A DNA stretch of 64,000 nucleotides from Bacteroidales bacterium. Lineage in GTDB: Bacteria; Bacteroidota; Bacteroidia; Bacteroidales; FEN-979. Position 1 is the stretch's first letter. Every line of letters starts with the position of its first letter. Both the position numbers and the translations under genes were made by a program. Below the pieces are notes generated by a model. The model saw only the letters and a program-made list of their open reading frames with translations. It had not been told where the DNA came from and did no database searches. The DNA is taken from positions 5,419-69,418 of the forward strand of contig JADGPR010000006.1 of assembly GCA_017882335.1 (NCBI GenBank), given 5' to 3'. Shown here piece after piece: positions 1,341 to 62,700 of the stretch.

Positions 1341-1754
1341 CTATTTTTTTGTAAAAACTGCCTGGATATTAATCAGGTTTGCTCCGTCATGGAGTGAATA
1401 AGGCCAGTCGATCCGGGTGGTGCCGGAAACCGTACCGCTGCCGTTAACAATCCAGCCGGGGGAAAGCAGATCGTCGCCTTTCAATGTCACTGTAACTCCC
1501 GATAAATAGGCAGTAGCTTTTGAATTCACACCGGACCCGGCAAAATTGCTGATCAGAATACCGTTTGTAGTTGTGGAATCAATCTCGAAGGTTACCTCAT
1601 AGGTCGCCTTTTTCTTCGATTCACTTACCAGCCATTTTCCGGTAAGTGAGGCCCGGGTTAATGCCAGCGTAGTTCCATTATCCTTATTACAGGACGAGAT
1701 GAAAAATCCTGCAACAAGAGAGAATAGCAGGATGTATTTATTGATGCTTTTCAT
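1341..1754 (-). CDS. lipoprotein, beta-rich (lipocalin-like), function unknown
   Basis: 137-aa ORF with a lipobox (FFISSCNKD). The rest is an alternating beta-strand-like sequence. Confidence 0.5.
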   Translation of the reverse strand: MKSINKYILLFSLVAGFFISSCNKDNGTTLALTRASLTGKWLVSESKKKATYEVTFEIDSTTTNGILISNFAGSGVNSKATAYLSGVTVTLKGDDLLSPGWIVNGSGTVSGTTRIDWPYSLHDGANLINIQAVFTKK

Positions 1755-1790: not shown

Positions 1791-1855
1791 CCTGATCCTG
1801 GATGCTAGATGCTGCCTGCCTGCCGCAGGCAGGGATGCTGTTATTTCCTGGATGG
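1791..1855. repeat. heptamer array + GC hairpin element (copy 1, intergenic)
   Basis: The sequence is cctgatc CTGGATG CTAGATG CTG-CCTGCCTGC-C-GCAGGCAGG-GATGCTG.. The core is a 19-bp perfect palindrome flanked by GATGCTG on both sides. Confidence 0.85.
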
Positions 1856-1896: not shown

Positions 1897-2427
1897 TTAA
1901 ACTAAATTATTGTGATTTTTCCGAAGGATAAGGAAAACGTAAAAGCTGAAGACCATGGTGGTGATTACCTGTGCAATCAGAAAAGAAGGATCCGCTTCTT
2001 CCTTGAGAAACATCATGGAAAAGAAAACCAGGTATAGGGTATAGCAAAGAACCTTGCTGACAACAATAGAAATGATCATCGACAGAAAAGCAGAATCAAT
2101 TTTCCTGAGGAGATAATAAAACAGGAAAACATTGGCTATCATCTCACCCGTCATGACCAGCATTTTGAAAAATTCCGGATGCCCTGATACAGCCCAGGAA
2201 AACATAGATAAGGTAAAGGCCAGGAGGTAAGAATTTACACGGGAAGAATGGGCAATAGATAACACAACCATCAGGCGCATGGGTTCGATCATGTAAAATG
2301 GCAGATGAATGATCTCACCAATTTTAGGAGTGAACATGACAAGAACAAGGGCAGCAATATCAAGGAGTATTGCACTACTGATATCCCGAGCCTGGATGGA
2401 TGAAAGGTTAAATTTTATCAGATTCAT
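1897..2427 (-). CDS. integral membrane protein, function unknown
   Basis: 176-aa ORF with about 5 hydrophobic spans and no recognisable catalytic motif. Confidence 0.45.
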   Translation of the reverse strand: MNLIKFNLSSIQARDISSAILLDIAALVLVMFTPKIGEIIHLPFYMIEPMRLMVVLSIAHSSRVNSYLLAFTLSMFSWAVSGHPEFFKMLVMTGEMIANVFLFYYLLRKIDSAFLSMIISIVVSKVLCYTLYLVFFSMMFLKEEADPSFLIAQVITTMVFSFYVFLILRKNHNNLV

Positions 2428-17180: not shown

Positions 17181-19868
17181 TTATTTCAGGAAGGTTCTTG
17201 CTTTCTTAAGCGCAGCCGGTATGCCAGCAGGGTTCTTACCTCCGGCCGTGGCAATGTGCGGTTGCCCGCCACCGCCTCCCTGGATTTCTTTTGCCAATTC
17301 ACGGATGATGTTAGCAGCATTGAATCCCTTTTCTTTGATGAGGCTTTCGGAGATCATCACGGTGAGGTTCGCTTTTCCATCATTTTCCGAAGCCAGTACA
17401 AGGAAAAAGTGGTCTGTTGTTTTACTCAGGTCAAAGGCGAGATTCTTGGCAGCATCCACGCTCAGTTCCACTTTTTCGGCAAGGAAATGAATGCCTTTGA
17501 TATTTTGAATCTTTAATGTGATCGCCTCCCGGACTTTATTCAGCTTCATTTTTTCGTATTCGGCTGCCAATAGCTTCAATTCCTGGTTCTCTTCCAGGAC
17601 GGTCTTTAATCCCTTGATGACATCCTTCGGATTTTTAAGCATTTCCTTCACCTCGTCAAGCAAGGAGATCCGGGAATTATAATACTCCATCGCTTTTTCC
17701 CCGGTGATGCCTTCAATTCTGCGGATCCCGGCAGCAATGGCACCTTCTGAAACGATCTTGAATAGCCCGATCTGCCCTGTTGTCGGCACATGTGTCCCTC
17801 CGCAAAGTTCAACAGAGAAATCTTTATCGAAAACAACAACCCTTACCATATCCCCGTATTTCTCCCCGAAAAGGGCCATGGCCCCCATCTCTTTTGCTTT
17901 TTCAATTGCCATCGACCGTTCTTCGTAAAGTTCAATGTTGCTCCGGATCTTCTGGTTCACGTTCTCTTCAGTTTTTTTGATCTCTTCATCTGTCATTTTT
18001 GCAAAATGCGTAAAATCAAAACGAAGGTGATATTCATCCACAAGGGAACCTTTTTGCTCTACATGGGTCCCGAGAACCCTGCGAAGGGCCGCATGCAGCA
18101 GGTGAGTAGCCGTGTGATTGTTGGCTGTATTCCTGCGTTTGGAGTCATCGACCATGGCAGTAACAGAAAGGGAAAGTGTTTCCGGAAGTGTTTTCATCAT
18201 GTGCAGGATGAGGTCGTGTTCCCGAATCGTGTCGGTGACCTCATAATTTTTTTCCAGTGAAACAAGCCACCCCCGGTCGCCCACTTGTCCACCTGATTCA
18301 GCATAAAACGGAGTTTGATCCAATACCACATGGAAAAATTCCCCTTCTTTGGTTTTGACTTTCCGGTAGCGTACTATCTGTGTTTCTGCGGATAGGGTGT
18401 CATAACCGATAAATATATTTCCTGAAGATTCAGGATTCAGGATTACCCAATCTGCCGTATCAACCTGGGCAGCCCGCCGTGAACGGGTTTTCTGCTCAGC
18501 AAGTCCTTTGTTGAAGCCATCCATCTCCACTTCCCAACCTGCTTCCTTCGCCATCAATTGGGTGAGGTCAATCGGGAAACCAAAAGTGTCGTAGAGTTCG
18601 AAAGCGAATGCACCGTCGATGATTTTTTCGACCGGATGCTGGATACTGCCTGCCTGCCGGACAGGCAGGGATGCTGGATGCTGGATATCGGTTGCTCCAT
18701 TCTTGTAAGATTCCAGATAAGAATTGAACTTTGTGATCCCGCTAGCCAGTGTTCGGAGGAATGAAGTCTCTTCTTCCCTGATCACATTTATGACAAGCTC
18801 CTTTTGTTTTTTTAATTCGGGGAAAACATCTCCCATCTGGTCAACGAGAATAGGAATAAATTCATGGATAAAGGCATCTTTCAGGTCAAGAAATACATAG
18901 CCATACCTTACAGCCCTCCGAAGGATTCTCCGGATCACATAACCGGCTTTGACATTGGAAGGCAATTGCCCGTCTGAAATGGCAAAAGTGATGGCCCTAA
19001 GGTGATCGGCGATCACGCGCATGGCAATATCCGCTTTCGGATCGGTGCCGTAAGGAATCCCCGATTTTTGTGCAATGGCTCCGATCAATGGCTGGAAAAC
19101 ATCGGTATCATAATTGGATTTCTTATGTTGCATCACCATGCAGAGACGTTCAAATCCCATTCCTGTATCGACATGTTTTGCAGGCAGGGGAACCAGCTGC
19201 CCGTTTGCCAGGCGGTTGAATTCGATAAAAACAAGATTCCAAACTTCGATGACCAGGGGATTTCCTTTATTTACCAGCGAATAGCCCGGAATTTTTCCCC
19301 TTTCCCGGTCATCCCTTAAATCGACATGGATCTCCGAACATGGACCGCAGGGACCGGTATCACCCATCTCCCAGAAATTGTCCTTCCGCGAACCCAGGAG
19401 GATCCGGTCTTCAGGAATCCACAACCTCCAATTTTCATAAGCTTCAGTATCTTTCGTCAGTCCTTCCTTTTTGTCTCCTTCAAAAACCGTAACATACAAA
19501 CGGTTTTTATCAATCTTGTAAACATCTGTAAGCAATTCCCAACCCCATTCAATCGCTTCCTTCTTAAAATAATTGCCGAACGACCAGTTCCCGAGCATTT
19601 CGAACATGGTGTGGTGGTAGGTGTCGTGCCCCACTTCTTCCAGGTCATTGTGTTTTCCTGAAACCCGGAGGCATTTCTGGGTATCCGCAATGCGCGGGAA
19701 TTTTGATTCTTTGTTACCGAGAAAAATATCTTTAAACCGGTTCATCCCCGCATTGGTAAACATCAGTGTTGGATCATCCTTTATAACCATGGGCGCAGAA
19801 GGAACAATGCTATGTTCCCTGGATCTGAAATAATCAAGGAAGGTCTGGCGTACAGTTTGAGAATTCAT
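17181..19868 (-). CDS. alaS: alanine--tRNA ligase, carrying an in-frame repeat-element insertion
   Basis: Motifs HHTMFEMLGNWSFGNYFK, editing-domain HTATHLLH and CGGTHV, and the DHHA1 tail GGGGGQPHIATAGG. It is 895 aa, and the insertion is at 18633-18688. Confidence 0.95.
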   Translation of the reverse strand: MNSQTVRQTFLDYFRSREHSIVPSAPMVIKDDPTLMFTNAGMNRFKDIFLGNKESKFPRIADTQKCLRVSGKHNDLEEVGHDTYHHTMFEMLGNWSFGNYFKKEAIEWGWELLTDVYKIDKNRLYVTVFEGDKKEGLTKDTEAYENWRLWIPEDRILLGSRKDNFWEMGDTGPCGPCSEIHVDLRDDRERGKIPGYSLVNKGNPLVIEVWNLVFIEFNRLANGQLVPLPAKHVDTGMGFERLCMVMQHKKSNYDTDVFQPLIGAIAQKSGIPYGTDPKADIAMRVIADHLRAITFAISDGQLPSNVKAGYVIRRILRRAVRYGYVFLDLKDAFIHEFIPILVDQMGDVFPELKKQKELVINVIREEETSFLRTLASGITKFNSYLESYKNGATDIQHPASLPVRQAGSIQHPVEKIIDGAFAFELYDTFGFPIDLTQLMAKEAGWEVEMDGFNKGLAEQKTRSRRAAQVDTADWVILNPESSGNIFIGYDTLSAETQIVRYRKVKTKEGEFFHVVLDQTPFYAESGGQVGDRGWLVSLEKNYEVTDTIREHDLILHMMKTLPETLSLSVTAMVDDSKRRNTANNHTATHLLHAALRRVLGTHVEQKGSLVDEYHLRFDFTHFAKMTDEEIKKTEENVNQKIRSNIELYEERSMAIEKAKEMGAMALFGEKYGDMVRVVVFDKDFSVELCGGTHVPTTGQIGLFKIVSEGAIAAGIRRIEGITGEKAMEYYNSRISLLDEVKEMLKNPKDVIKGLKTVLEENQELKLLAAEYEKMKLNKVREAITLKIQNIKGIHFLAEKVELSVDAAKNLAFDLSKTTDHFFLVLASENDGKANLTVMISESLIKEKGFNAANIIRELAKEIQGGGGGQPHIATAGGKNPAGIPAALKKARTFLK
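18633..18688. repeat. heptamer + GC hairpin element (copy 2) inserted in frame in alaS
   Basis: The sequence is cggatgctggatactg-CCTGCCTG-ccgga-CAGGCAGG-gatgctggatgctggata. It is near-identical in architecture and sequence to 1798-1840. Confidence 0.85.
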
Positions 19869-24873: not shown

Positions 24874-25563
24874 TTAAAAAAGTACGCCGATATTCAGTTC
24901 GGCATAATTCAGGCTGCTTCGGTTCGACAAACTGTTATCTTTCGTGTTTTTCCCCAGTAAAACATTGTTCAGGCTATTGCTGTATGAAAATCCTACTATT
25001 AATGAAACAGATTCATCAATCTTATATTCGGTGCCCAACCCCACGAGAATGGCTTCACGGATAAAACACACTTCACTTGTGTTGAGGTTCTTCATATCCG
25101 TGATAGTCCCGTGATCCTGGGTCATAAAGTTATCCGTCACTTTGGTGCGAAGGTTAAATCCCGTGCCGAACCCGATCTGTCCGAAGAAACTGAAATTACC
25201 GTATTGCTTTGTCTTCATCTTCATCATTAACGGAATTTCGAGATAACGGAAGTTGTATTTTCGGTCAAGGATACCTATATCCGGTGATAGTGCATAGGGA
25301 AATTGCAGGTTCCCACTCAGAAAGGAGAAATTGAAACCGGTGGAAAGAGCGTAATGCTCTGTAAAATAGAATTCACTGATGAATCCGAAGGAGATGCCGG
25401 TTGCAGCTCCATTGTAAATGTAGTTTTTTTCATTTGGGTTCATCCATGAGATGCATGGGGCAACCCTCAATCCCAACCGCACCGGTGAATTCTGTGAAAA
25501 GCCTGCCTTTGTAAAAAAAAAGATCAGGGAAATGGCCAGTAATCGTATTGTTATTTTTGTCAT
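24874..25563 (-). CDS. small outer-membrane beta-barrel protein (PorT/OMP_b-brl-like)
   Basis: I prefer the start at MTKITIRLLAISLIFFF..GFSQ because it gives a signal peptide. The sequence has an alternating beta pattern and an aromatic C-terminus (NIGVLF). Confidence 0.55.
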   Translation of the reverse strand: MTKITIRLLAISLIFFFTKAGFSQNSPVRLGLRVAPCISWMNPNEKNYIYNGAATGISFGFISEFYFTEHYALSTGFNFSFLSGNLQFPYALSPDIGILDRKYNFRYLEIPLMMKMKTKQYGNFSFFGQIGFGTGFNLRTKVTDNFMTQDHGTITDMKNLNTSEVCFIREAILVGLGTEYKIDESVSLIVGFSYSNSLNNVLLGKNTKDNSLSNRSSLNYAELNIGVLF

Positions 25564-25667
25564 AGCTCCGGAATTATTAATACCTCTGATGGTGCTTTTT
25601 AACAAAATTACATTATTCATAACTGAATCAAGAGGTTTCTCATAGGATTTTATCCAAAAGTAATCAA

Positions 25668-25730
25668 CTGGATGCTGGATGCTGGATGCTGGATGTGGAT
25701 TCTAGGTTCTTGGTTCTGGTTACTTGGCTA
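25668..25730. repeat. nine in-phase heptamers: (CTGGATG)4 then TGGATTC TAGGTTC TTGGTTC TGGTTAC TTGGCTA
   Basis: Read directly from the sequence. It lies in the divergent spacer between the porT-like gene and gldB. Confidence 0.85.
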
Positions 25731-31123: not shown

Positions 31124-32131
31124 ATGGACAAACAGAGCAATTACAAAAAGCTTTTTGAGGAGTTCAACAAACTTACCATCATGATCATAGGGGATGTGAT
31201 GGTGGATTCCTATTTATGGGGCAAAGTTGAACGGATCTCACCGGAAGCGCCAATTCCTATTGTTGCATTACGAAAAAGGGAAAACCGCATGGGAGGTGCT
31301 GCCAATGTGGCCATGAACATTAAAAGCATGGGTGCAAAACCGATCCTTTGTTCGGTGATCGGGGAGGATGATAAAGGAGTAAATTTTCTCGATCTTTTGA
31401 AAAAGGAAAAGATTGCAACTTACGGCATCATAAAAAGTCCTCAAAGAATTACCACCACGAAATTCCGGATCTTCGGAAACAGCACACAGATGCTGAGGGT
31501 GGATGAGGAAGAGGAAGACGACCTTTCGGAAAACGATCGTGCGAACCTTCTTGCCAATATTGACAGGATCCTGTCAAAGGAAAAAATTGACGGGATCATC
31601 TTCCAGGATTACAACAAAGGAGTGATCAATCCCATCCTGATTAAGGAAGTCATTGACCGTACTACAACTTTGAAAATTCCGGTAGCCGTTGATCCGAAGA
31701 AAAAAAATTTTTACGATTTCGTCGGTGTGACACTGTTCAAGCCCAATCTGAAAGAGCTGAAAGAAGGTATGAAGATCGAATTTGACCACAGCGATCGTGA
31801 TATGATGATATCGGCTGCGCAAACATTGAGGGAAAAACTTAATTGCCAGTACATTCTTACAACCTTATCAGAACTGGGTATCATGATCAGTATGAAAGAT
31901 AATTTAGAGGAAAAAAATATCTTCATCCCGGCACATGTACGCTCCATCTCTGATGTTTCGGGCGCCGGTGATACGGTGATCGGAGTTGCAGCCCTTTGCC
32001 TTGCCCAAAAATGTTCACCTTATGAGATTGCTTATATTTCCAATCTTGCCGGCGGATTGGTATGTGAGGAGGTAGGGGTGGTCCCGGTTAATAAAGATAA
32101 ACTCCTGAAAGAGGTTCTTGCCCTTCTCTGA
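31124..32131 (+). CDS. PfkB-family sugar kinase, RfaE domain-I-like (heptose-7-phosphate kinase-like)
   Basis: N-terminus IMIIGDVMVDSYLWGKVERISPEAP and DVSGAGDTV. There is no adenylyltransferase domain. Confidence 0.65.
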   Translation: MDKQSNYKKLFEEFNKLTIMIIGDVMVDSYLWGKVERISPEAPIPIVALRKRENRMGGAANVAMNIKSMGAKPILCSVIGEDDKGVNFLDLLKKEKIATYGIIKSPQRITTTKFRIFGNSTQMLRVDEEEEDDLSENDRANLLANIDRILSKEKIDGIIFQDYNKGVINPILIKEVIDRTTTLKIPVAVDPKKKNFYDFVGVTLFKPNLKELKEGMKIEFDHSDRDMMISAAQTLREKLNCQYILTTLSELGIMISMKDNLEEKNIFIPAHVRSISDVSGAGDTVIGVAALCLAQKCSPYEIAYISNLAGGLVCEEVGVVPVNKDKLLKEVLALL

Positions 32132-33417
32132 TGTTTTTTGATACCGATGTAATCATTGTTGGTGCGGGTCCGGCTGGTTCCCTTGCAGCTTATATCCTGG
32201 CATTACAAGGCATACAGGTAACCATTCTTGAGAAAACCCTGTTTCCAAGGTACAAGGTTTGTGGAGGGGGATTGACTCACAAAATCCTGAAAGAGATTCC
32301 TTTCGACCTTTCCCCTGTCATCGAATCGAGCATTCATTCCTTCCGTTTTTCCCATAACTTCGGGAATGTTTTTACCCGGCATTCGGCCAACCCACTGATG
32401 TATTGCACCATGCGTTCCGACCTGGATGCATTCCTTTTGCAACAAGCAACTGAGGCAGGTGCTGAAGTAAAGATGGGAGAACAGGTTATATCCTTCATGC
32501 AGGATGGATCCGGTATTACCGTTTCAACAAAAGAAAAATCTTTTCGTACCCGTTTGCTGATCGGTGCAGAAGGCGCTTCCGGGATCGTTTCCCGAATTGC
32601 AGGACTCCGTGATGCTATTGAAATGGGATTGGCATGGGAGGCGGAAGTAACAGCCGACCCGGAAGACCTGAAAATATTCTCTGAAACGGTTTTCCTGGAT
32701 TGGGGAACACTTCCCGGTGGATATGCGTGGGTATTCCCGAAGAAAGATCATTTTTCCATCGGTGTGGGCGGCCCTGCCGGCTTGTCGAAAGGAATGATGC
32801 CTTATTATGAACGTTTTATATCATCAATTACCGACATCACTACTCCATCCTCCATCCTCGATTCTCAATCCTCCGACTTCCGACCTCCGATCTCCGACCT
32901 CCGACCTCCGACCTCCGGAATCAGGTTCGGAGAAACACGCTCATTGCAATCCTGGCCCATCCCGGTCCGTTCAAGGAAGTCCAGGTTCCATAACGGCCGT
33001 GTTCTGGTAACGGGAGATTCGGCAGGACTGGGTGATCCCCTGACGGGTGAAGGCATCTATTATGCAATCAGAAGCGGGAAACTTGCTGCCGAAACCTGTT
33101 CTGAATATTTATCAGGGAAGATCATATCGGTGGATGTTTATTCTGAGAAGATCAATGACGAGCTGATGACGGAACTGCTGGAGGCAAATAAGATCAAACA
33201 TCTGCTTAATGCTTTTCCATTGAAAATTCATTCCTTTATCGGTGACAGTGACCATGCTTGGGGGGCTTTCTGCAAGATTCTTCGCGGTGAGCGATGGTAC
33301 GAAGATGTCCGTAAGGGTTTTGGGAAATGGAAGCACTTCTGGAACCTGGTCTGTTTTATCTCCGGAATCGTGAAAAAACGCAAAGAGAAGCGGTTTCTGA
33401 AAAAAAACACCGTTTAA
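32131..33417 (+). CDS. geranylgeranyl-reductase-family FAD-dependent oxidoreductase with low-complexity insertion
   Basis: Motifs VIIVGAGPAGS, GGYAWVFPK, GDSAGLGDPLTGEGIYYA. An inserted SDFRPPISDLRPPTSG tract is encoded by a heptanucleotide array. Confidence 0.8.
   Translation: MFFDTDVIIVGAGPAGSLAAYILALQGIQVTILEKTLFPRYKVCGGGLTHKILKEIPFDLSPVIESSIHSFRFSHNFGNVFTRHSANPLMYCTMRSDLDAFLLQQATEAGAEVKMGEQVISFMQDGSGITVSTKEKSFRTRLLIGAEGASGIVSRIAGLRDAIEMGLAWEAEVTADPEDLKIFSETVFLDWGTLPGGYAWVFPKKDHFSIGVGGPAGLSKGMMPYYERFISSITDITTPSSILDSQSSDFRPPISDLRPPTSGIRFGETRSLQSWPIPVRSRKSRFHNGRVLVTGDSAGLGDPLTGEGIYYAIRSGKLAAETCSEYLSGKIISVDVYSEKINDELMTELLEANKIKHLLNAFPLKIHSFIGDSDHAWGAFCKILRGERWYEDVRKGFGKWKHFWNLVCFISGIVKKRKEKRFLKKNTV
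32846..32922. repeat. eleven in-phase degenerate heptamers (CCATCCT x2 ... CCGACCT x3 ... ) inside the FAD-oxidoreductase CDS
   Basis: The units are ccatcct ccatcct cgattct caatcct ccgactt ccgacct ccgatct ccgacct ccgacct ccgacct ccggaat. They translate with 7-aa periodicity (SDFRPPI SDLRPPT SG..). Confidence 0.85.
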
Positions 33418-33893: not shown

Positions 33894-35519
33894 TCAGTCG
33901 ACATTATTGTGCAGGTAGGAATTCTCCTTTTTGATCTCGATATTTGCATCTTTCTCGGAAATCGTATAGAGCTGTACCTGTGATTCGGAAGATGGCTGTA
34001 CATCGGAAAGCTCAACGTTCCTGCGTTTATATGCCGGTACGCTCTCGATCTCGGCCAGGTGAGTTTCCAGCGGAGGATGCGTCTTGAGCTTTTCGCTCAA
34101 TGCCCTGAGTTTTTGTACCCGGTCGTTCATCATCTTTTCCATCTCGGGTTGTTCTTTTTGAACTTCAGGTTCTGTCTTTTGAACCGGTTTGACAGAAGGC
34201 CTGAAAAAAACCTCCGACACAGGGATCTCAATCTGCTTGTTTTCGTACTTTATTTCTTCGGCAGGCTCTTCATGAATTATTTTCCGTGGTTCGGTGTCCT
34301 GGGGTTCCATGTTGAAGACAATGGTACGATGAGGGAAAGATTCTTCCGGAATGATCTCTCTTTCGATAACCTGGGGTTCGGGTTCCGGTTCGGGTTCCGG
34401 TATAATGGCCAGGATCTCTTCAGCAGGTTCCTGCTCCAAAGAGATGGCCGGTTCCTCCTTGGGCATTACCGAGATATCAAGGGGTTTGATTTTTATTTCC
34501 TGCCCGTAAAGGGGGGTCACGATCACCGGCTTTTCTCTTTCTGCAGGTTTTTTCTTGTGCTCCTCATCAAATCCGGTTGCGATGATGGTTACGCTGATAT
34601 TGTCTTCCAGCGATTCATCGATCCCGTTTCCCCAGATCACTTCTGCTGAATTTTTTGTCTTTTCCTGGATGTAATCGGTAATTTCGGAAACTTCGTCCAT
34701 CGTGATCTCATCTTTACCGGAAGCAATGTAAAGTAAGAGATTATTGGCTCCTTCGATATTGTTGTCGTTGAGTAACGGCGAATTGAGGGCCATTTCAATT
34801 GCTTTAATGGCGCGGTTTTCACCATTTGCAAGCCCTGAACCCATGATCGCCACCCCGCTGTCCTTCATCACCGTTTTCACATCTTCGAAATCCACATTGA
34901 TGTATCCTGTAACCGTGATGATCTCAGCGATTCCTTTTGCAGCGGTAGTCAGCACATCATCGGCATGACTGAAAGCAGCGGAGAGCCGCTGATCGCCAAA
35001 AAGATCCCTCAGCTTATCATTGCATATGATGAGTAAGGCATCCACATATTTCTTCAACTCGGCGATGCCCTGTTCGGCATGCTGTTTACGCTTCCTGCCT
35101 TCAAAGGAAAAAGGCATGGTAATGATTCCCACGGTTAGGATACCAAGTTCTTTCGAAACGCTGGCAATAACTGGTGCAGCACCGGTTCCGGTTCCACCAC
35201 CCATCCCGGCAGTGATGAACAGCATCTTGGTGTTTTTTTCCAATATGTTCCGCAGGTCCTGGATGTTTTCCAGTGCCGCGTTTTTTCCGATTGAAGGAAC
35301 GGCTCCTGCACCAAGGCCCCCCGTAAGATTTGCCCCCAACGCTATCTTTGTCGGTACCGGACTGGATTCCATCGCCTGCGAGTCGGTGTTGCAAATAATG
35401 AAATCAACACCTTTGATGCCTTGCCGGAACATATGGGTTACGGCATTGCTACCACCTCCGCCGACACCGATCACCTTAATGATGGATGACTGGTTTTTAG
35501 GTAAATCAAATTTTAACAT
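33894..35519 (-). CDS. ftsZ: cell division GTPase FtsZ (long Bacteroidota-type C-terminal region)
   Basis: Motifs GVGGGGSNAV, GGGTGTGAAPVIA, VPAYKRR, and the terminal NSYLHNNVD. I prefer the ATG at 35519 (MLKFDLPKN..). Confidence 0.95.
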   Translation of the reverse strand: MLKFDLPKNQSSIIKVIGVGGGGSNAVTHMFRQGIKGVDFIICNTDSQAMESSPVPTKIALGANLTGGLGAGAVPSIGKNAALENIQDLRNILEKNTKMLFITAGMGGGTGTGAAPVIASVSKELGILTVGIITMPFSFEGRKRKQHAEQGIAELKKYVDALLIICNDKLRDLFGDQRLSAAFSHADDVLTTAAKGIAEIITVTGYINVDFEDVKTVMKDSGVAIMGSGLANGENRAIKAIEMALNSPLLNDNNIEGANNLLLYIASGKDEITMDEVSEITDYIQEKTKNSAEVIWGNGIDESLEDNISVTIIATGFDEEHKKKPAEREKPVIVTPLYGQEIKIKPLDISVMPKEEPAISLEQEPAEEILAIIPEPEPEPEPQVIEREIIPEESFPHRTIVFNMEPQDTEPRKIIHEEPAEEIKYENKQIEIPVSEVFFRPSVKPVQKTEPEVQKEQPEMEKMMNDRVQKLRALSEKLKTHPPLETHLAEIESVPAYKRRNVELSDVQPSSESQVQLYTISEKDANIEIKKENSYLHNNVD

Positions 35520-35616
35520 AGATTGGGATTTTAGCTTTTTAAAATTAGACAGAAACAATGCATGAAAAATGGCAGGCGTTTTTTTTTATTAACAGAACGA
35601 TTGTTAATAGCAGAAT

Positions 35617-42082: not shown

Positions 42083-43336
42083 TTACCTCAATTTCAATGT
42101 TACAATGGTCAGCACTGCCAGCATGATCCCGATAATGAAAAAGCGGATCACAATTTTTGATTCATGGTATCCTTTGACCTGGAAATGATGGTGCAGCGGC
42201 GACATCAGGAATATCCTGCGGCCGGCCCCGAACCTGCGTTTCGTATATTTAAAGTACCCTACCTGCATAACCACCGAAAGGTTCTCAATGAGAAAGATCC
42301 CACAGAAAATCGGGATCATGATCTCTTTTCGGATCAGGATGGCAAATACAGCGATAATGCCGCCCAGCGCCAGGCTGCCGGTATCTCCCATAAAAACCTG
42401 GGCAGGATATGAGTTGTACCAGAGAAACCCGATACAGGCCCCGACGAATGCGCTGATATAGATTGCCAGCTCGCCGGTATTCGGAATGTACATGATGTTC
42501 AGGTAATTTGCGAAGATGATGTTGCCGGAGACATAAGCCAGGATTCCCAGCGTAAGTCCGATGATTGCCGAACTCCCGGTCGCAAGCCCGTCCAACCCGT
42601 CGGTCAGGTTTGCACCATTTGATACAGCAATAATGATGAAGATGATGATGGGTATGAATATTAAGAATGTCCAATTTTTATAATTCTTCCCGATCCAGGA
42701 GATCAAAACAGAATAATCAAATTCATTGTTTTTCAGGAAAGGGATGGTAGTCTTCGTGGATTTTGTTGGAATATTCGTGTACATCTTTGCACGGTCTGAA
42801 TTACCTTCCACATTGAAAATCTCGGAGGAGGGAACAAAGGCCTGCCTGGTTGTCTTCTCACGGATTACGATGTCCTTGCTGAAAAACATGGTGGTTCCGA
42901 CAATCAGGCCCAACCCGATCTGTCCCATGATTTTGAATTTTCCTGCAAGACCTTTTTTATCCTTGCGGAATACTTTGATGTAATCATCCATGAATCCGAT
43001 GGTTCCCAACCAGACCGTTGAAACGAGGATCAGAAAGATATAGATGTTATGAAGTTTTGCCAGGAGAAGGGTAGGGACAAGGATAGCTGCAAGGATGATA
43101 AGCCCACCCATCGTAGGTGTTCCCTGTTTGGCCGTTTGTCCTTCCAGACCGAGATCCCGGATGGTTTCACCTACCTGTTTTCTCCGCAGGTAACCGATCA
43201 GCCTTTTTCCAATGATCATTGAAATGAAGAGCGATGTAATAAGCGCCAGTGCTGCCCTGAACGAGATGTATTGGAATACACCTGCTCCTGGGAAATCAAA
43301 GGCTTCGTGCAGCCAGATGAATAAATAATACAGCAT
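42083..43336 (-). CDS. mraY: phospho-N-acetylmuramoyl-pentapeptide transferase
   Basis: Motifs [28 protein letters not shown]. 417 aa. Confidence 0.95.
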
Positions 43337-43353: not shown

Positions 43354-44817
43354 TTATTCTACTCCCACTCCCAATACTTCATTCAAAACTATTTTATCGT
43401 CAAAAGGATACTTAACTCCTTTTATTTCCTGGTATGTTTCGTGCCCTTTGCCGGCTACCAGGATGATATCTCCCGGTTTCGCAAGGGCACAGGCCGTTTT
43501 GATCGCCTCTTTGCGGTTTACGATCACCAGTACCTTGTTGGCAAACTGCGGCTCTATCCCTTTCTTCATATCATCCAGAATGGCTTCAGGCTCTTCAAAA
43601 CGGGGATTGTCGGACGTAAGGATAACCCTGTCGCTGAGGTTGCATGCTATTTTAGCCATCATAGGCCGTTTGGCAGCATCGCGATTCCCACCTGCTCCAA
43701 CAACCGTGATGATCTTTTCCTTGTGGGTACGGATCGATTGGATTGTTCCCAGGACATTTTGCAAAGCATCAGGAGTATGCGCATAATCCACAATGGCTGT
43801 GATCGCATTCGGTGTCCGGATATAATTGAACCGCCCGTCAACAGGCTCACAAAGGCTAAGCTGGGTTAATACATTTTGCCGCTCCTCTCCGAGAAGGACT
43901 GCCGTGGCATATACTGCCAACAGGTTATAGGCATTGAAGTTCCCGATCAGCCGGAACCAGCAATCTGTTCCATCCATAGAGAGATGCAAACCCTGGAATT
44001 GGTTCTCGAGGATCCTGCAATGGAAGTCAGCCATGGATTGCATGCTGTAGGTGGAAACAGTCGCATTTGTATTCTGTACCATCATCCTCCCATTCCTGTC
44101 ATCCTTGTTAATAAGTGCAAATGCGCTACCGGGCAGGTCGTCAAAAAAGGTTTTCTTGGCCTTAAGATAGGCATCAAAAGTTTTATGATAATCCAGGTGA
44201 TCGTGTGTCAGATTAGTAAAAATGGCTCCCCTGAAAGTAAGACCGGCAACCCGGCGCTGAACCACTGCATGTGAACTTACTTCCATGAAACAATGGGTGC
44301 ACCCTTCCTCAACCATCTGTGCCAGCAATTCATTCAGCTGAACAGGATCGGGAGTCGTATGGGTTGTCGCAAGGTTCCGTTCCCGGATCTTATTCTGTAT
44401 GGTGGAAATCAACCCGGCTTTGTGACCCAGTTTTTGAAAAAGCTGGTGCAAAAGAGTAACCGTTGTCGTTTTTCCATTAGTGCCGGTAACTCCCACCAAG
44501 TTCAGTAAGGATGAGGGATTCCCAAAAAAATTTGAAGCGATTACAGCCTTGGCATAGCTGCTGTCATCTACGAGGATATAAGTGACTTGCCTTTCCGGGT
44601 TTTTCGGAATTTTTTCACATACCACTGCAACGGCTCCTGACCTTACAGCATCGGGAATAAATTGATGTCCATCAGAGGCGGTCCCCTTTACAGCAAAGTA
44701 GAGACAACCGCGGTCGACTGTCCGGGAATCGAATTTCAGCGAATGAATTTCAATATCCACTGACCCAAATATCTCCTTCACTCCCGCCTTTTCCAGTATA
44801 TCTCCTAACCTCTTCAT
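43354..44817 (-). CDS. murE: UDP-N-acetylmuramoyl-L-alanyl-D-glutamate--2,6-diaminopimelate ligase
   Basis: Motifs [21 protein letters not shown], and a DNPR-type motif (TSDNPRFE). Confidence 0.95.
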
Positions 44818-44820
44818 GAT

Positions 44821-44920: not shown

Positions 44921-47050
44921 TCAACCTTTTCCCATTGCCAAATCCAATGACACTATGGATCCTTTTATATACATTCTTCCCGGGCTGAGAGATTGCCTGA
45001 CCACATTGCCTTTCCCATTCAACACAACCTTTAATCCCATTTGTTCGAGGAGAAAAACGGCATCTTTCACCCCCATTCCAGTCACATCCGGCATGGTTCC
45101 CTGGTAATGATTTGATGGCAGAAGTATCACCGATGAATTGTTCGAAACCGGTATCGCCCACTGGGCCACCGGGTTCAAGGGTTTTGCTTTGATGTTAAGC
45201 CAAGCATAAGCATCTTCCAGGTCCTTTTGTACACCTGCATTTGCAGAAGGGATCAGGTGTCCGGAGGTATCCTGCGGAGGAGGATTGTTGACGTCATGAA
45301 GGTTGGCAAAGATCCGGTCGGCGATCTCCTTGAAAACCGGAGCAGCAACCGCACCACCATAATATTTTCCCTTGGATGGATTGTTGATGACCACAATGAT
45401 GGAATACCTGGGATGGTCGGCCGGAAAATACCCCACAAAGGATCCTTTGTATTTAATGGCTTTGGTTCCCTGCCCATATCCCTTGTTGTTCATGGCAATC
45501 TGGGCAGTGCCGGTTTTCCCTGCAACTTTGTAATGCGGGTTCTTTAATGAAGTTCCAGTTCCGCGTTCCACAACTCCTTCCAGGAGCATTTGGGCTTTTT
45601 CAATCGTAGCCGGCGAACAGATATGCGGATTGATGACCACCGGCTCAAAAGATTGAACTACCTGGCCATTTTTCCGGATTTCCCTGACAAAAAGTGGCTT
45701 TACCATTACCCCGTTATTGGCAACTGCATTGTATAATGTAAGGGTCTGTAAAGGAGTAATGGCGACTTCATATCCGATCGCCATCCAGGGTAACGATACT
45801 GCAGACCACCATTTACTCTTCGTGTTCTTAATATAAGGCATGCCTTCACCGCCTATTTGGAGATTCTGCGGGAGGTTGATCGACATCCTGTAAAGTCCGT
45901 CGATATATTTCTGCGGTTCATCGACATATGCATTATAGATCAGTTTGGAAGTTCCAACATTGGAGGATTTTTCAAACACCTGGTGCGCCAGTAAGGTACC
46001 TGTCAACTTATGTGCATCCGTCATCGACCTTCCATGATAATTCATGACGCCATTGCCCAGGTTGACCGGCTGGTCCATGGAAATCTTCCCATCTTCCAAT
46101 CCTACAAGAAATGAAGCCAGTTTAAAAGTCGATCCGGGTTCCGAACTTTCTCCTATAGCATAATTAAATACCTCTTCATATCCTCCTTTAGGGCTTTTAC
46201 CAAGATTGATGATCGCTTTGATAAACCCGGTCTTGACTTCCATCACGATCACGCATCCATGATCAGCACTATCGGCGCTTAGTTCTTTTCTTAAAGCAGA
46301 TTCTGCCAGGTCCTGCAGATTGATATCCAGTGTTGTGATGATATCATCTCCATTCTGGGGCTCTACTTCATTCTCGATATCCACAGGCATCCAGGCGGCA
46401 TTACCGATCCTTCGCATCAGCCTCTTGCCCCCGGTGCCTTGTAGATTTTTACTGAACGAGCCTTCCAGTCCCACATAAACTTTTTGTGCAGCTTCCGTGT
46501 TCTCATATCCGATAGTACGACGGGCAAGGTTCTTAAAAGGAAGCTCCCGTTGGAATTGCGGTATGACGATCATTCCACCTTTATAGGTCCCCAGTTTGAG
46601 AATCGGGAATTTGCGCATCTGCCTGAGTTCCGGATAGGTTACATCGCGGTGGATCATCAGGTATCGGTCTCCGTTTCGCCTTCCTTCCCATAAGAAATTT
46701 TTGTACTCGGAAAGATTTTTGTCTTTGAACAGTTTTGTAAGTTGATAAGCAAGCGAATCTATCTTATTCTTGAAAAGACCCTCGGTGATCAGGTCTGAAC
46801 TTACGTCCATCCGGATGTCGAAAATGGGAATGGATGTGGCAAGCAGCGTCCCATCGTCTGCACAGATATTGCCGCGGATTGCATCGACAGGAAAAAAACG
46901 CATTTCCTGCTTTCGGGCTTTTTCAAGCAATTCTTTTCCTTCCGAGGACCGGATATAAATCGCTTTCCCGATGATCGCCATGCCGAAAAGCAGTATCCCG
47001 AAATAAACGACATACACACGTAACAATATGTCTTTCTTGATCTCTTTCAT
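44921..47050 (-). CDS. ftsI: class B penicillin-binding protein (FtsI/PBP3-type) with C-terminal PASTA domain
   Basis: Motifs GSTFK, SSN, and KTGT (AGKTGTAQ). C-terminal PASTA-like region MPDVTGMGVKDAVFLLEQMGLKV. Confidence 0.9.
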   Translation of the reverse strand: MKEIKKDILLRVYVVYFGILLFGMAIIGKAIYIRSSEGKELLEKARKQEMRFFPVDAIRGNICADDGTLLATSIPIFDIRMDVSSDLITEGLFKNKIDSLAYQLTKLFKDKNLSEYKNFLWEGRRNGDRYLMIHRDVTYPELRQMRKFPILKLGTYKGGMIVIPQFQRELPFKNLARRTIGYENTEAAQKVYVGLEGSFSKNLQGTGGKRLMRRIGNAAWMPVDIENEVEPQNGDDIITTLDINLQDLAESALRKELSADSADHGCVIVMEVKTGFIKAIINLGKSPKGGYEEVFNYAIGESSEPGSTFKLASFLVGLEDGKISMDQPVNLGNGVMNYHGRSMTDAHKLTGTLLAHQVFEKSSNVGTSKLIYNAYVDEPQKYIDGLYRMSINLPQNLQIGGEGMPYIKNTKSKWWSAVSLPWMAIGYEVAITPLQTLTLYNAVANNGVMVKPLFVREIRKNGQVVQSFEPVVINPHICSPATIEKAQMLLEGVVERGTGTSLKNPHYKVAGKTGTAQIAMNNKGYGQGTKAIKYKGSFVGYFPADHPRYSIIVVINNPSKGKYYGGAVAAPVFKEIADRIFANLHDVNNPPPQDTSGHLIPSANAGVQKDLEDAYAWLNIKAKPLNPVAQWAIPVSNNSSVILLPSNHYQGTMPDVTGMGVKDAVFLLEQMGLKVVLNGKGNVVRQSLSPGRMYIKGSIVSLDLAMGKG

Positions 47051-52595: not shown

Positions 52596-52856
52596 ATGAA
52601 ACTCCGAAAAAATGTTGCTGTCAGTGAAGCCGGATTGTTGTTTAACCCTGTAACCGGTGAATCCTACTCAGTGAACCCCATTGGTGTTGAGATTATCAAT
52701 CTCCTGCGGGAGGAGAAAAGCCCGGAGGACATCAGTAAATTCATATTGGGGAAATTTGCAACGGATAAAGCCACATTTGAGAAAGACTATCACGATTTCA
52801 TCGGTATCCTTGAACACCACAACCTCTTAGACAGCCATGAAGAAACGAAAGCTTAA
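52596..52856 (+). CDS. PqqD-family (RRE-like) small protein
   Basis: 86 aa. The pattern LLFNPVTGESYSVNPIGVEIINLL.E..SPEDI...L..F..D....E.DYHDFIGIL..HNLL matches the PqqD/peptide-chaperone fold signature. It overlaps the next gene by 20 nt. Confidence 0.6.
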   Translation: MKLRKNVAVSEAGLLFNPVTGESYSVNPIGVEIINLLREEKSPEDISKFILGKFATDKATFEKDYHDFIGILEHHNLLDSHEETKA

Positions 52857-53883
52857 AATTGCCGTCACTGGGTTGAATGCGATTGACAGTCCGGGTCCCG
52901 GGATTTCGGTAATCAGGGCCCTGAGGGAGGCGGCATCGTTTGATGTCAGGATCATAGGACTGTCATACGAATCGCTTGAGCCGGGCATTTACATGCACGA
53001 CCTGGTGGACCGTACATACTCGATTCCTTATCCTACGGCTGGAATCGACACCCTTCTGGCTCGCCTGGAATATATCCATGAAAAGGAGAAACTGGATGTG
53101 ATCATCCCCAACTTTGATGCGGAACTTTACCCGTTTATCAAACTGGAGACGAAACTCAAGGCCATGGGCATTCATATGTTTCTTCCAACCCTGCACCAGT
53201 TCGAGGAACGGCAGAAGGTAAACCTCAACGAATTCGGGAAGAAGTATAACATCAATGTCCCCAGGAGCAAAGTTATTCATGACCTCAGCATGGTATACAG
53301 TCTCCAGTCGGAATTTTCATTCCCGATGATCGTGAAAGGAAAATTTTACGATGCCTCTATTGCATACAGCATCGAACAGGTGAAAAGCTATTATAATAAA
53401 ATCAGCGCCAAATGGGGGCTTCCCATCATCATCCAGGAATTTATCCATGGTACGGAATTCAACGTAACCGGCCTGGGCGATGGTAAAGGCAATACCATTG
53501 CGGCTGTTCCGATGCGCAAGCAATACATCACTGAAAAAGGAAAGGCCTGGGGAGGCATTTCGATTTCTGACGAGGAAATGCTGGATATGACGCGCAAATT
53601 CCTGCGCACAACAAAATGGCGTGGTGGATTTGAACTTGAACTGATGAAAAATAAGGATGGCGAACTTTACATGTTGGAGATCAATCCGCGCCTGCCTGCA
53701 TGGATCTACCTTGCTGTCGGTGTCGGACAAAACATTCCCGAAGCATTGGTCAAGCTGGCCATGGGTGAAAAGGTAAAACCCTTTACAAAGTATACTGTGG
53801 GAAAGATGTTCGTGCGTTATTCATGGGATATGATTGTTGACAGGGAAGAGTTTGAGCAGATCTCAATCTATGGAGAACTATAA
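52837..53883 (+). CDS. ATP-grasp family ligase (carboxylate-amine ligase type), unassigned subfamily
   Basis: 348 aa. A pre-ATP-grasp region (KIAVTGLNAIDSPGPG..), a central block FPMIVKG......I...E, IIQEFI.G.EF.V, and the Mg/ATP loop LMLEINPRLPAW. Confidence 0.7.
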   Translation: MKKRKLKIAVTGLNAIDSPGPGISVIRALREAASFDVRIIGLSYESLEPGIYMHDLVDRTYSIPYPTAGIDTLLARLEYIHEKEKLDVIIPNFDAELYPFIKLETKLKAMGIHMFLPTLHQFEERQKVNLNEFGKKYNINVPRSKVIHDLSMVYSLQSEFSFPMIVKGKFYDASIAYSIEQVKSYYNKISAKWGLPIIIQEFIHGTEFNVTGLGDGKGNTIAAVPMRKQYITEKGKAWGGISISDEEMLDMTRKFLRTTKWRGGFELELMKNKDGELYMLEINPRLPAWIYLAVGVGQNIPEALVKLAMGEKVKPFTKYTVGKMFVRYSWDMIVDREEFEQISIYGEL

Positions 53884-53886: not shown

Positions 53887-53924
53887 CTAGCGAAGCCTGC
53901 CTGCCGGTAGGCAGGTAGCGAAAA
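53887..53924. repeat. GC hairpin element (copy 4) flanked by 7-bp direct repeat TAGCGAA
   Basis: cTAGCGAAg-CCTGCCT-gccggt-AGGCAGG-TAGCGAAaa, starting 4 nt after the ATP-grasp stop codon. Confidence 0.8.
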
Positions 53925-59717: not shown

Positions 59718-62700
59718 CTAATCCTTTAAGCATCGGACACTGAATGCATTCGCCCTGCTTGCAGGATAAAGCGCTACACTGGGATCATAATCATTCATCA
59801 CATGCGCCCAGGATTTGGTGGAAGTATATGCCGTTGAAGACCAAAAGAAGGTGGCGAAACCGTCATAGCTCCAGGAGATGTTGAACAACCTGGTACCTGC
59901 TAATAATGCATTGTACCCGGAATATCCGGAATATTTCAAAGGGCTTCCTGCAAAGCCATTGTTTGTCCAGTTGACAAATAATATATTCCAGTCATTTTCT
60001 GTCGGCACATGCCATCCCGGGGGGCACAATCCCTGGTTCGACACAGAAAAATCGTACTGCATCAATTCATCCCATTGATAGAACACGGATCCGGTGGTGC
60101 AGCGCACAGGGATATCGTTGTAACAGTACTTTTCAACTATGCAATTGTCCCTTTGAGTTGATGATCCTGCTATCTGTGACCCATAGTTCAGGTTGGCAGC
60201 CATCCAGCACTGGGTGCCGATCTGAACGGTAGGATAAACCTTGTTGTCCCTGATATCGGTGATCGGGCTTCCACAATTGACAATTGAAAATGGATAATTG
60301 ATAATATTGGCATGGGCAAGGGTGCTGCAGAGTGCTGCATTGGTGTAGGTATACGTGATTGAGTGTGTGCCTATGCCTGCGAGTGATGGGGTAAAAACGC
60401 CGGTTAAGGAATTGACTCCTGGTCCCGAGTAGGTTCCCCCCAATGGAATTCCACCTTTGAGCATAAAGGGTTTGGCATTGATGGTTGTAACCGTATCAAA
60501 ACAAGGGTTAAAAGTAACAATAGGATTACTGTTAACCGACATGGTGATTGCATTGCTGGTGGCAGGATTACCACTGGTACAGGTGAGGTTGGAAGTCAGC
60601 AAACAGGAGATCAAATCGTTATTTGATGGATTATAAGTGTATGCCGGGTTATTGGTACCAACATTGATCCCGTTGACTTTCCATTGATAGGATGGAGAGC
60701 TGCCACCATTTGCAGGTATTGCAGTGAAAGTAACTGCGATACCCGCACAAACCGGGTTATCCGATGCAGCAAGTGAAACACTGACCGGCAGGTTGGGATT
60801 GACAATCATCTGAAGCTGGATGCTGGATGCTGGATTGCTGGATGTACAAGATTCTGACGAAGTAAGTACACAGGATACCAGGTCCCCGTTTGCCGGAATA
60901 TAGGTGAAGTTTGGAATATTGGTTCCGACATTTATTGAGTTAACCTGCCATTGGTATGCAGGCAATATTCCTCCGTTTACAGGATTTGCAGTGAATGAAA
61001 CAGAAGTTCCGGAACAAACCGGATTTGCATCAGCAGATATGGAAATGGTGACAGGCAGATTGGGGTTAATTGTCATTACCACTATATTGCTTGTTGCCGG
61101 GTTACCGGAAGTACAAGTCAGGTCAGAAGTCAGAACACAGGAAACCGCGTCATTATTGGATGGCGCGTACGTGAATGCAGGTGAATCTGGGCCGATATTG
61201 ATACCATTCACTTTCCACTGGCAGGTTGGTAAAGCCCCTCCATTGACCGGTGCTGCTGTAAATGTCACTGGTGTGCCGGCACAAACGGGATTGGCTGATT
61301 CTGCAACTGAAACACTGACCGGCAAATTAGGATTGACGGTCATTATCACGGTTGTGCTTGTGGCAGGATTCCCTGTTGTACATGATAAGTCAGAAGAGAT
61401 CATACAGGAAACAGCATCATTATTGGATGGTGTGTATGTAAACAATGGTGAATTTGATCCTTGATTAACTCCATTGACTTTCCATTGGTAAGTTGGTAGA
61501 GTCCCTCCGTTAACAGGTGTCGCAGTAATTGTAATAGGAGAGCCGGCACATACCGGGTTTGCATCGGGTGAAATTGTCACACTAACCGGCAGATTTACAT
61601 TGACCGTCATGTTGACCTGGTTGGAGGTTGCGGGATTATTGGCGATGCAAAGCGTTTCGGAAGAATTAAGTATACAGATGACTTGATCATTTTCGGCCGG
61701 AGTGAAAGTATATATGGGGTTGTTTGTGCCGACATTGATGCCATTTACCTGCCATTGGTAAGTTGGAGAGGTTCCTTCATTTTGTGGGGTCGCCGTAAAT
61801 GTAACAGTTGATCCTGAACAGACCGGATTGGCCGAAGGAGATATCGATATATTGACAATATTAACCGGGTTAACAATCATTATAATGGCATTGGATAATG
61901 CTGGATTATTGGAGATGCATGTGATATTGGATGAAGTTAAAACACAAGCGACAATATCTCCGTTCAGCGGAACATAGGTATAAACAGGAAAATCGGAACC
62001 GGCATTGAGTCCATTCACCTTCCATTGGTAAGAAGGATTTATCCCGCCATTGGTCGGTGTGGCTGTGAAAGTTACCATAGTTCCTACGCAAATGTTATTG
62101 GAAGAAGAAACAATGGATATATTTACAGTACTAATTGGAATTACCGTTACAATATATGCTACTGTATTTCCAACACAACTCCCCAATACTGGCGTAATAA
62201 AATAGGTTACAGTTTCATTGACTGTATTTGAATTTGTGAGCACCTGGTTGATCGTATTTCCTATACCAGATGAATAACCGGCAACAAAGCCTGAGGAACC
62301 GGTAGCTGTCCACGAAAATGTTGTAATTGGAACATTTGAAGTTAAAATAATATTTGTTGAATTGCCTGAACAGATCGATTTTGCCAGGGGGAAATTCGTG
62401 ACAACTGGAGTTGTAATGGTTAACAACTGGACTGTATCCATAACCTGGCACCCGCTTGTATTTGTGACAGTAACCTTATATATACCAACCAGACCCGTTG
62501 TGAAAGTCTGTGATGTTCCAACTGTTAAACCGGAACCGAGGTCTATCCACAGATAAGTGCAACCCGCACATGCGCCCGCATCGAAGATAACGGTTTGTCC
62601 CTGGCAAACGGTTGTATCCGGTCCAAGGTTTACGGGTGTAACTGAATATAACGACACGTTCACCTCATCGTTTGCTGTGCAGCCGGTTTTTGTAACGGTT

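Follow-up and report, generated by a model that had tools for sequence, protein, structure and literature searches.

Among the short palindromic repeats of bacteria, the Rickettsia palindromic elements (RPEs) are said to have been described by Ogata et al. in 2000 and 2002, and the small dispersed repeats SDR1-8 of Nostocaceae were reportedly described by Elhai et al. in 2008 (Genome Res 18:1484). SDRs are also associated with tandem heptamer repeats and are essentially intergenic. The REP/REPIN and RAYT systems and the IS200/IS605 group are characterized by GC-rich hairpins, no target duplication, strict orientation, a specific short target and seamless excision; REPs by definition lie outside genes, are usually present in hundreds of copies per genome and have a RAYT gene linked to them. 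The passages on RPEs in PMC10969869 present them as palindromic repeats found in frame in many unrelated protein genes. For SDRs, whose properties are restated in the relevant parts of three secondary papers (PMC4390886, PMC5861425 and PMC3116915), insertion of SDR5 between nucleotides 3 and 4 of HIP1 is stated in a section of the first, and occurrence only in Nostocaceae in a section of the second. Heptanucleotide arrays (STRR, or long simple-sequence repeats) are known from Cyanobacteria, Beggiatoaceae and some Bacteroidetes and are mostly intergenic, the units expected in genes being those of a length divisible by 3 (PMC4679880). Here we analyse a 21-nt palindromic mini-element that lies inside alaS, the gene for alanine--tRNA ligase (AlaRS), in a 64-kb stretch of a Bacteroidales contig (JADGPR010000006.1, positions 5,419 to 69,418; this whole stretch of 64,000 nt is called the window below). 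The insert is probably a site-specific, ultra-small mobile hairpin that lodges in heptamer arrays and is tolerated in a disordered linker of AlaRS.

The host gene (17181..19868, minus strand) is an intact single open reading frame (ORF) of 895 aa, which aligns with AlaRS chains of the PDB over its full length (E=1e-131 for the catalytic fragment); PF01411, PF07973 and PF02272 were present in all of its 120 best database homologues. The mini-element, CCTGCCTG-CCGGA-CAGGCAGG, occupies 18649..18669 (minus strand; plus strand, CCTGCCTGCCGGACAGGCAGG) and consists of a GC-rich, perfect 8-bp stem with a 5-nt loop, located between GCTGGAT heptamers. On the coding strand it reads CCTGCCTGTCCGGCAGGCAGG and is translated as LPVRQAG (7 codons, aa 401-407). 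It is preceded, in the coding sense, by an in-frame array (ATCCAGC)n at 18670..18688 (minus strand; plus strand, GATGCTGGATGCTGGATAT), which encodes DIQHPAS, and followed by a second in-frame array, CAGT ATCCAGC ATCCGG, at 18632..18648 (minus strand; plus strand, CCGGATGCTGGATACTG), which encodes SIQHPV, so that the translation across the site is DIQHPAS-LPVRQAG-SIQHPVEK. Tandem Repeats Finder detected a period of 7 at 18669-18686. The palindrome splits one heptamer precisely after its ATC and before its CAGC (GCTG^GAT on the opposite strand), and a target-site duplication is absent. The segment is thus built of two repeat layers, an older in-frame heptamer array and a palindrome nested in it. 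In the predicted folds of single-stranded DNA, the occupied allele forms the 8-bp hairpin at -10.1 kcal/mol and the empty allele (see below) reaches -0.7 kcal/mol. Three units of ATCCAGC also make 21 nt (IQHPASS); derivation of the palindrome from three heptamers was rejected, since a phase-matched comparison by eye gave almost no identity. A role as an intrinsic terminator was ruled out as well: the copy lies in the middle of the gene, and the sequence behind it, GATGCTGG (CAGTATCC on the coding strand), has no T-run.

Linker DNA of the window was compared with that of six close alaS orthologues from independent assemblies. The window reads, on the coding strand, GAT ATCCAGC ATCCAGC ATC, then the insert, then CAGT ATCCAGC ATCCGGT. 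Two loci, L001 and L002 (protein P0004, 93% identical to that of the window), read GCATCCAGTATCC where the window has GCATC, the insert and CAGTATCC. Over a longer stretch they read GAT ATCCAGC ATCCAGC ATCCAGT ATCCAGC ATCCGGT, which equals the window linker with exactly 21 nt removed, and at the empty site the heptamer is whole. A private heptamer variant, CAGT, adjoins the insert in the window and is also present at the empty site of L001. In locus L003 (protein P0006) the insert occupies this same site and differs by one base in the loop (ACCGG). In L004 (protein P0009) the heptamer phase is unchanged and the insert reads CCTACCTTGCCGGCAGGTAGG, with a stem, CCTACCT...AGGTAGG, that is altered on both sides but still pairs. 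L005, L006 and L007 have (ATCCAGC)n alone, with about 10, 5 and 5 units, L001 also having about 5; the array is common to L001 and L003-L007, and its copy number shifts in frame-preserving steps. Two copies 14 nt apart were found in the alaS gene of L028, one copy with an extra CAGG in that of L051, and a decayed copy in that of L052. The first-pass annotation, made from the window letters, had quoted this palindromic segment of alaS, and its sequence was confirmed within the single 895-aa ORF; so were a preserved frame, an intact gene downstream of the segment, and close relatives devoid of the insert (L001 and L002). The insertion, which it had put at about 19 aa, is a real one, as the empty site indicates, but measures only 21 nt or 7 aa (LPVRQAG); the CTGGATG-type heptamers that it had counted as part of the insert belong instead to the older in-frame tandem array, which serves as the target.

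Occupancy does not track the distance between the genes, because the occupied L003 (89.7% nucleotide identity of alaS to the window) is farther from the window than the empty L007 (94.3%) and L001 (93.3%); the likewise empty L006 stands at 93.1%. The local alaS tree was ((WIN,L001),(L003,L004)), and with the window, L003 and L004 occupied and L001 empty it requires at least two events of gain or loss. Sliding-window identity further revealed a mosaic: the alaS gene of the window is close to L007 (0.96-0.98) over most of its length, and alignment columns of about 900-1350 (about 450 nt, the linker included) are close to L001 (0.966-0.976) with L007 at 0.84-0.87. A search of plasmids with alaS gave no match. 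The mosaic may reflect homologous recombination between strains or a strain-chimeric assembly. A chimeric assembly would open the way to reading the insert itself as an artefact of metagenomic assembly or sequencing, either a chimeric join or a spurious hairpin. We regard this as scarcely credible, given that an independent contig from another sample (L003) shows the insertion in this very position, its loop differing in one base, that copies are drawn from JGI, ENA and NCBI assemblies, and that every coding copy keeps the frame of a real gene. The insertion is independently confirmed, whatever the origin of the mosaic, because L003 carries the same-site copy.

The linker concerned lies between ...KFNxYxES and IDGxFAFELYDT, and its length among 120 orthologues ranges from almost nothing to more than 40 residues with nearly invariant flanks. 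With 31 aa in the window, against 10 in A. aeolicus (1riq, residues 366-375) and 8 in human (4xem, residues 416-423), it is about 21-23 aa longer than in AlaRS of solved structure, which bears out the remark of the first-pass annotation that AlaS proteins known to it have a shorter connection. An AlphaFold2 model of the full AlaRS, built with 25 close homologues, had a mean pLDDT of 61; residues 391-413 were modelled as coil with pLDDT <50 between helix 356-389 and helix 419-429, which lends weak support to a disordered surface loop. The LPVRQAG insert is most likely a neutral passenger that just lengthens such a loop. If peptides of the SLPVRQAGSIQHP type were found in metaproteomes, they would mark the insert as translated rather than removed. 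The same linker is filled with other repeats in more distant Bacteroidota alaS genes: that of L053 (alaS of P0086, 1001-3703) has a (TGTCACG)-type heptamer array encoding SCVTRHVSQV (SRVTRHAS in relatives) and also holds an element CCCCTCCCC...GGGAGG encoding PPQPLPKKGG. In the alaS gene of the window, a second period-7 repeat, (GATTCAG)2.6, was observed at 18427-18444, where it is read as ILNPES, past the catalytic fragment and in a region of lower conservation.

One could suppose instead that the AlaRS linker has contained the segment ancestrally and that selection on the protein has conserved it, with a likeness to the repeat that is coincidental or due to derivation of the intergenic copy at 1815..1833 (see below) from alaS. 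IQHPAS-like peptides are indeed widespread in the linkers of related AlaRS. The closest orthologues, however, lack LPVRQAG and show in their DNA a clean empty site; the 120 orthologues differ by zero to more than 40 extra residues; and an identical 21-mer is found in unrelated genes in three frames and on both strands. An ancestral, conserved segment of the same length, which the first-pass annotation had named as the finding that would count against an insertion, was not found, the linker being hypervariable in the 120 orthologues. By these sequence comparisons the ancestral reading is refuted, and we assign it almost no probability.

Two further copies of the palindrome were found in the window. 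A 19-nt copy, CCTGCCTG-CCG-CAGGCAGG (CCTGCCTGCCGCAGGCAGG), lies at 1815..1833 (plus strand) in the intergenic region between ORFs 1341..1754 and 1897..2427 (both on the minus strand). The layout of 1797-1840 is CCTGGATGCTAGATGCTG, then the copy, then GATGCTG, with the GCTGGAT array at 1797-1814 and 1834-1840. Kinship between the alaS segment and an intergenic element at 1798-1840 had been proposed in the first-pass annotation, and the two copies do agree in their stems, heptamer phase (GCTG^GAT) and orientation. A 20-nt copy, CCTGCCTGCCGGTAGGCAGG, lies at 53896..53915 (plus strand), also intergenic, between two TAGCGAA units and starting 13 nt past the stop codon of ORF 52837..53883. Two matches to the pattern CCTGCCTG-N(1-12)-CAGGCAGG are present in the window, against none in 100 shuffles that preserved the dinucleotides; the octamer CCTGCCTG was counted 11 times against 1.2 expected, and CTGGATGCTGGAT-like runs 10 times against 1.9 expected. 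Two heptamer arrays are unoccupied. One, (CTGGATG)4.9 at 25668..25700 (plus strand), is intergenic, upstream of an outer membrane protein gene (24874..25620, minus strand), and is a potential target array for the palindrome; the other, an ATCCAGC array at 60815..60844 (minus strand), is in frame (TSSNPASSIQL) in a 1384-aa PKD/Fib_succ_major surface protein gene (59718..63872).

A strict pattern including the heptamer flanks was run on 185,579 representative genomes and retrieved 5 copies, all in metagenome-assembled genomes (MAGs) of Bacteroidales; one of them is in a complete 5.27-Mb genome, in frame in the gene for a 2068-aa alpha-2-macroglobulin. The pattern GCTG-palindrome-GAT gave 42 copies on 38 metagenome contigs and zero matches in viral contigs. 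All hits were in Bacteroidales MAGs or in metagenome contigs with Bacteroidota-like genes. Together with flank-unconstrained copies in the fetched loci, the pattern hits amount to 55 non-redundant copies, 49 of which are at GCTG^GAT. Their lengths are 19, 20 or 21 nt, except for one of 25 nt, and the 8-bp stems are nearly invariant across them, with variation in the loops. In the GCTG^GAT orientation, the loop of the 21-nt copies is CCGGA in 22 and a one- or two-base variant in the others, never the reverse complement TCCGG, and that of the 19-nt copies is CCG or CCA in 10 out of 10, so that the orientation is a fixed one with respect to the heptamer. When a 49-aa composite peptide was compared with a database of 5.8 billion proteins, only short spurious ORFs over heptamer arrays were matched, so that this search yielded no census of host proteins. 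Short hypothetical proteins resembling translations of ATCCAGC arrays were noticed in Desulfobacterales, Caldithrix, Glaciecola and an Olavius symbiont (P0121, P0147, P0148 and P0161), and the heptamer may be iterated in other phyla too.

A precise insertion with an empty counterpart was seen not only in alaS (L001) but also in IspG and in a tRNA D-loop fragment. The latter is in L033 (2679-3040), where a 29-nt 5' fragment of tRNA-Arg(CCT) is duplicated and its D-loop GCTG^GAT holds a 20-nt palindrome. The fragment, which lies upstream of a GIY-YIG-like ORF (MIYVYAIESLKAKRIYVGQTNNLEKRL) and of the intact tRNA, reads GCTCAGCTG, the 20-nt palindrome, then GATAGAGC; the intact tRNA, about 250 nt downstream of the fragment, reads GCTCAGCTGGATAGAGC. 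Since the fragment is occupied and the intact tRNA is empty, a lone GCTGGAT can be a target.

To class a copy as coding, we required that the ORF containing it have 190 aa or more and that 30 codons or more lie on either side of it. Under this definition 26 of the 21-nt copies were coding and 6 were not coding or uncertain, as against 1 and 21, respectively, of the 19- or 20-nt copies, so that the length of a copy predicts its location (Fisher's exact p = 2e-8; the copies are not all independent, several being orthologous). The only coding 19-nt copy (L014) is actually upstream of an evident start, MKKILILGAG. The 26 in-frame copies fall in about 12 protein families, the insert lying inside or next to the Pfam domain envelope. 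Besides AlaRS and a Fer4 protein, the hosts are, by Pfam, GcpE/IspG (two copies), MeaB GTPase, Peptidase_S46 (two orthologues), Asparaginase_2 (five orthologues, with the insert between signal peptide and domain and in all three frames), Glyco_transf_9 (GT9; two orthologues, with one and two copies), DUF6873 (two orthologues), the C-terminal tail of MutS (MutS_V), alpha-2-macroglobulin (A2M) and an ABC ATPase (ABC_tran). Both the heptamer and the palindrome are free of stop codons in all six frames, the translations of the palindrome being SLPVRQAG, PCLSGRQA, PACPAGR, ACLPDRQG, CLPAGQAG and LPACRTGR, and the same 21-mer was found in unrelated genes in three reading frames and on both strands. 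Copies can survive in coding sequence because there is no stop in the six frames and because the 21-nt isoform keeps the frame. In most hosts the ATCCAGC strand is the coding strand; IQHPASS is presumably better tolerated than AGCWMLD.

Clean empty sites were also seen in a second essential gene, that for IspG. Most relatives of 78-84% identity carry MLDAGYWMLD, which is an in-frame GCTGGAT array with two adjacent target sites, and all four occupancy states were found among orthologues 81-84% identical: neither site occupied (MLDAGYWMLD; P0168 and many others), the first only (MLDA[ACLPDRQ]GYWMLD; P0165 and P0208), the second only (GY[CLPAGQAG]MLD; P0163, P0164 and P0166) and both (L029). A decayed copy is present in P0223. 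Such a pattern is hard to explain without repeated, independent and exact gains or losses of the 21-mer. For the other host genes, the window and the alaS loci contained no orthologue, and hence no additional empty sites there.

The distribution among hosts also bears on the possibility that the insert is kept because it is useful, either as a structural signal in mRNA or DNA (translational pause, protein binding, replication or recombination) or as a beneficial peptide. The stem of L004, changed on both sides with its pairing kept, fits this idea, as do the near invariance of the stems beside variable loops over the 55 copies and the length of 21 nt, which equals three heptamer units and keeps the 7-nt periodicity. 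Conservation of the stem is, however, equally expected for a young element or for mobility that depends on the hairpin. Moreover, very close relatives differ in occupancy at two essential genes and fixation is nowhere apparent, the peptide depends on the frame and has six translations, the hosts are functionally unrelated, and decayed copies exist (L052 and P0223). A selected function of hairpin or peptide is thus unlikely, and we would give it only a slight chance.

The observations to be accounted for are therefore an exact 21-nt polymorphism, a constant position and orientation, no duplication, multiple events per gene and a split of location by length. On the reading that we favour, the hairpin would be a non-autonomous, ultra-small mobile element, which inserts precisely at GCTG^GAT and probably excises there. 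The most plausible route, by analogy with IS200/IS605 and REP/RAYT, would be of the HUH/Y1 type, in which a single-strand hairpin is recognised. A single short hairpin with a specific target sequence, bound to one strand orientation, leaving no duplication and lost in an apparently seamless way, is the combination that HUH/Y1 systems produce. Copies that land in heptamer arrays of tolerant protein loops would survive purifying selection, and the 19/20-nt isoforms would persist only outside genes.

The chief competitor invokes no mobility enzyme: the palindrome would be copied between (GCTGGAT)n arrays by gene conversion or by template switching during replication, with the heptamers as the homology. 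Nearly all copies lie in, or border on, an array of the same heptamer, tandem copies are exactly 7 or 14 nt apart (L029 and L028), the window has no transposase, and the recombinant tract in alaS spans the linker, all of which such copying would account for. It would leave unexplained the tRNA fragment of L033, which shares only GCTGGAT, the copies with almost no heptamer homology on one or both sides (L019, L020, L022, L023, L032 and L048), and the palindrome cores between units of unrelated heptamers. RecA-dependent exchange usually needs more homology than flanks of 3-17 nt provide. The private CAGT, found both at the occupied site of the window and at the empty site of L001, further argues that the flank was not imported with the palindrome. 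Array-to-array copying is on balance unlikely, although it deserves to be kept in view as the most substantial of the alternatives.

Several points weigh against the mobile-hairpin reading. The window's 50 main ORFs are ordinary housekeeping genes, the dcw cluster included, and a transposase, RAYT or Y1-like gene was not found among them. The invariant phase and orientation of the copies are explained equally well by array-to-array copying, and for alaS one gain plus one exact loss would be as parsimonious as two gains. Since the census pattern that gave the 42 copies demanded GCTG...GAT flanks, target specificity is partly built into the search. Six of the 55 copies, from loci fetched for other reasons, are in other contexts: three of these lie between clear units of TAGCGAA, TTTCGCT and TTATGAA, typically as one extra base plus a 20-nt core (21 nt in total), one (L007) lies in less regular ATCTGCG-like repeats, and those of L047 and L050 are outside heptamer repeats. 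The copy number is seemingly low (5 in the 185,579 genomes and 42 in the metagenome collection), and the coding copies do not all represent separate events, since many were contributed by a small number of related metagenomes and by orthologues. Finally, the AlphaFold2 model is poor overall, and the claim of a surface loop consequently draws mainly on the length variation and on the alignments to solved structures. With these points taken into account, we still consider a mobile hairpin with a tolerant linker the probable explanation.

A wider proposal is that the copies represent an unrecognised class of Bacteroidales hairpins of 19-21 nt, specific in site (GCTG^GAT) and orientation, leaving no duplication and capable of exact excision, whose stop-free 21-nt isoform, either evolved or filtered, colonises genes, the essential alaS and ispG among them. 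This we put forward tentatively, with rather less than even confidence. If it is true, transposition machinery of an unknown kind, possibly HUH-like, would be at work on a substrate smaller than any reported so far, and proteins would have a new route to loop insertions. The finding itself provides a tractable system for studying the movement of ultra-small repeats, with a 21-nt substrate and a 7-nt target, and the insertions offer strain-level markers for environmental Bacteroidales. They also call for caution in annotation and phylogeny, as linker indels in the marker genes alaS and ispG can be repeat-driven and homoplasious.

Other repeats and a gene irregularity were observed in the window. 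The surface protein gene 59718..63872 has a second period-7 array (ACAATTG) at 60273-60305. Adjoining arrays (CTCCATC)4.6 and (CCTCCGA)6.9 at 32843-32917 are in frame (TPSSILDSQSSDFRPPISDLRPPTSG) in the gene for a 428-aa FAD-binding oxidoreductase (32131..33417), and the gap at 44820-44920 between a murE-like gene (43354..44817) and a penicillin-binding protein (ftsI-like) gene (44921..47050) consists wholly of heptamers (TCTCTGT, TTCGCTG and TCACCCT). Further intergenic period-7 arrays are at 13606-13650, 16991-17071 and 59040-59110. A hexamer/dodecamer repeat, (GGGTTC)4.7, lies at 34374-34401 in the C-terminal linker region of ftsZ (33894..35558). At the murD position of the dcw cluster (41496-42044), the ORF has only 182 aa and matches only Mur_ligase_C; mraY (42083..43336) starts 39 nt from it, and the N-terminal two thirds of MurD seem absent, which could mean that the gene is truncated or split or that the assembly is at fault. 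No Rfam family was matched in the window at gathering thresholds.

Compared with the known systems, the Bacteroidales element resembles RPEs in behaviour, being a palindromic family found both between genes and in frame in unrelated, often essential genes, with insertions that are compatible with protein function, lie in loops and are polymorphic in occupancy among relatives. The comparison with Rickettsia made in the first-pass annotation was thus apt, and it proves broader than alaS, the 21-nt element being in frame in about 12 protein families. RPEs, at about 100-150 bp and 30-50 residues, differ in size: the present element has 19-21 nt and 7 residues set by the frame, and is 5-7 times smaller. 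It is also nested at a fixed phase in a heptanucleotide tandem array, unlike RPEs, and its copies are from free-living environmental Bacteroidales, whereas the RPE hosts are obligate intracellular Alphaproteobacteria. Its separation from RPE-1 to RPE-10 is by taxon and description, the RPE sequences themselves not having been set side by side with it.

With SDRs, which measure 21-27 nt, it shares the nature of a very small dispersed repeat, and its place between nucleotides 3 and 4 of ATCCAGC recalls SDR5 in HIP1, a fixed position in an iterated host motif. It departs from SDRs in that its frame-neutral 21-nt isoform is mostly intragenic. Compared by description, it is at most a family analogous to SDR1-8, since the taxon is Bacteroidales. 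REP/RAYT and IS200/IS605 offer a mechanistic analogy in the short GC-rich hairpin, the lack of target duplication, the strict orientation and the specific target; unlike REPs, 26 of the 32 21-nt copies are intragenic, the copy number is apparently low, and neither a RAYT nor a Y1 transposase is among the 50 main ORFs of the window. As for MITEs (miniature transposable elements with inverted repeats), their features, namely terminal inverted repeats with target-site duplication and a size of about 50-500 bp, were not observed, there being no duplication at the alaS, IspG and tRNA sites and a length of 19-21 nt. The element is not an RPE, a REP or a MITE, because at least one defining feature of each was tested and found to be absent.

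Like STRR-bearing genomes, the window is rich in diverse, mostly intergenic period-7 arrays with head-to-tail units of varying copy number; unlike those in the STRR literature, period-7 arrays here are in frame in essential genes (alaS and ispG) and are landing pads for a second element. The searchable literature yielded no description of the exact sequences or of the heptamer repeats in Bacteroidales, in agreement with the first-pass annotation, which had been aware of no equivalent for Bacteroidota. Heptanucleotide arrays can accordingly be in frame in essential genes and act there as landing pads, and protein loops that tolerate it can gain and lose a hairpin cassette of 7 codons. In-frame selfish palindromes have so far been seen as a peculiarity of Rickettsia, and tiny mobile repeats as one of heterocystous cyanobacteria; the two are joined here in a third, free-living phylum.

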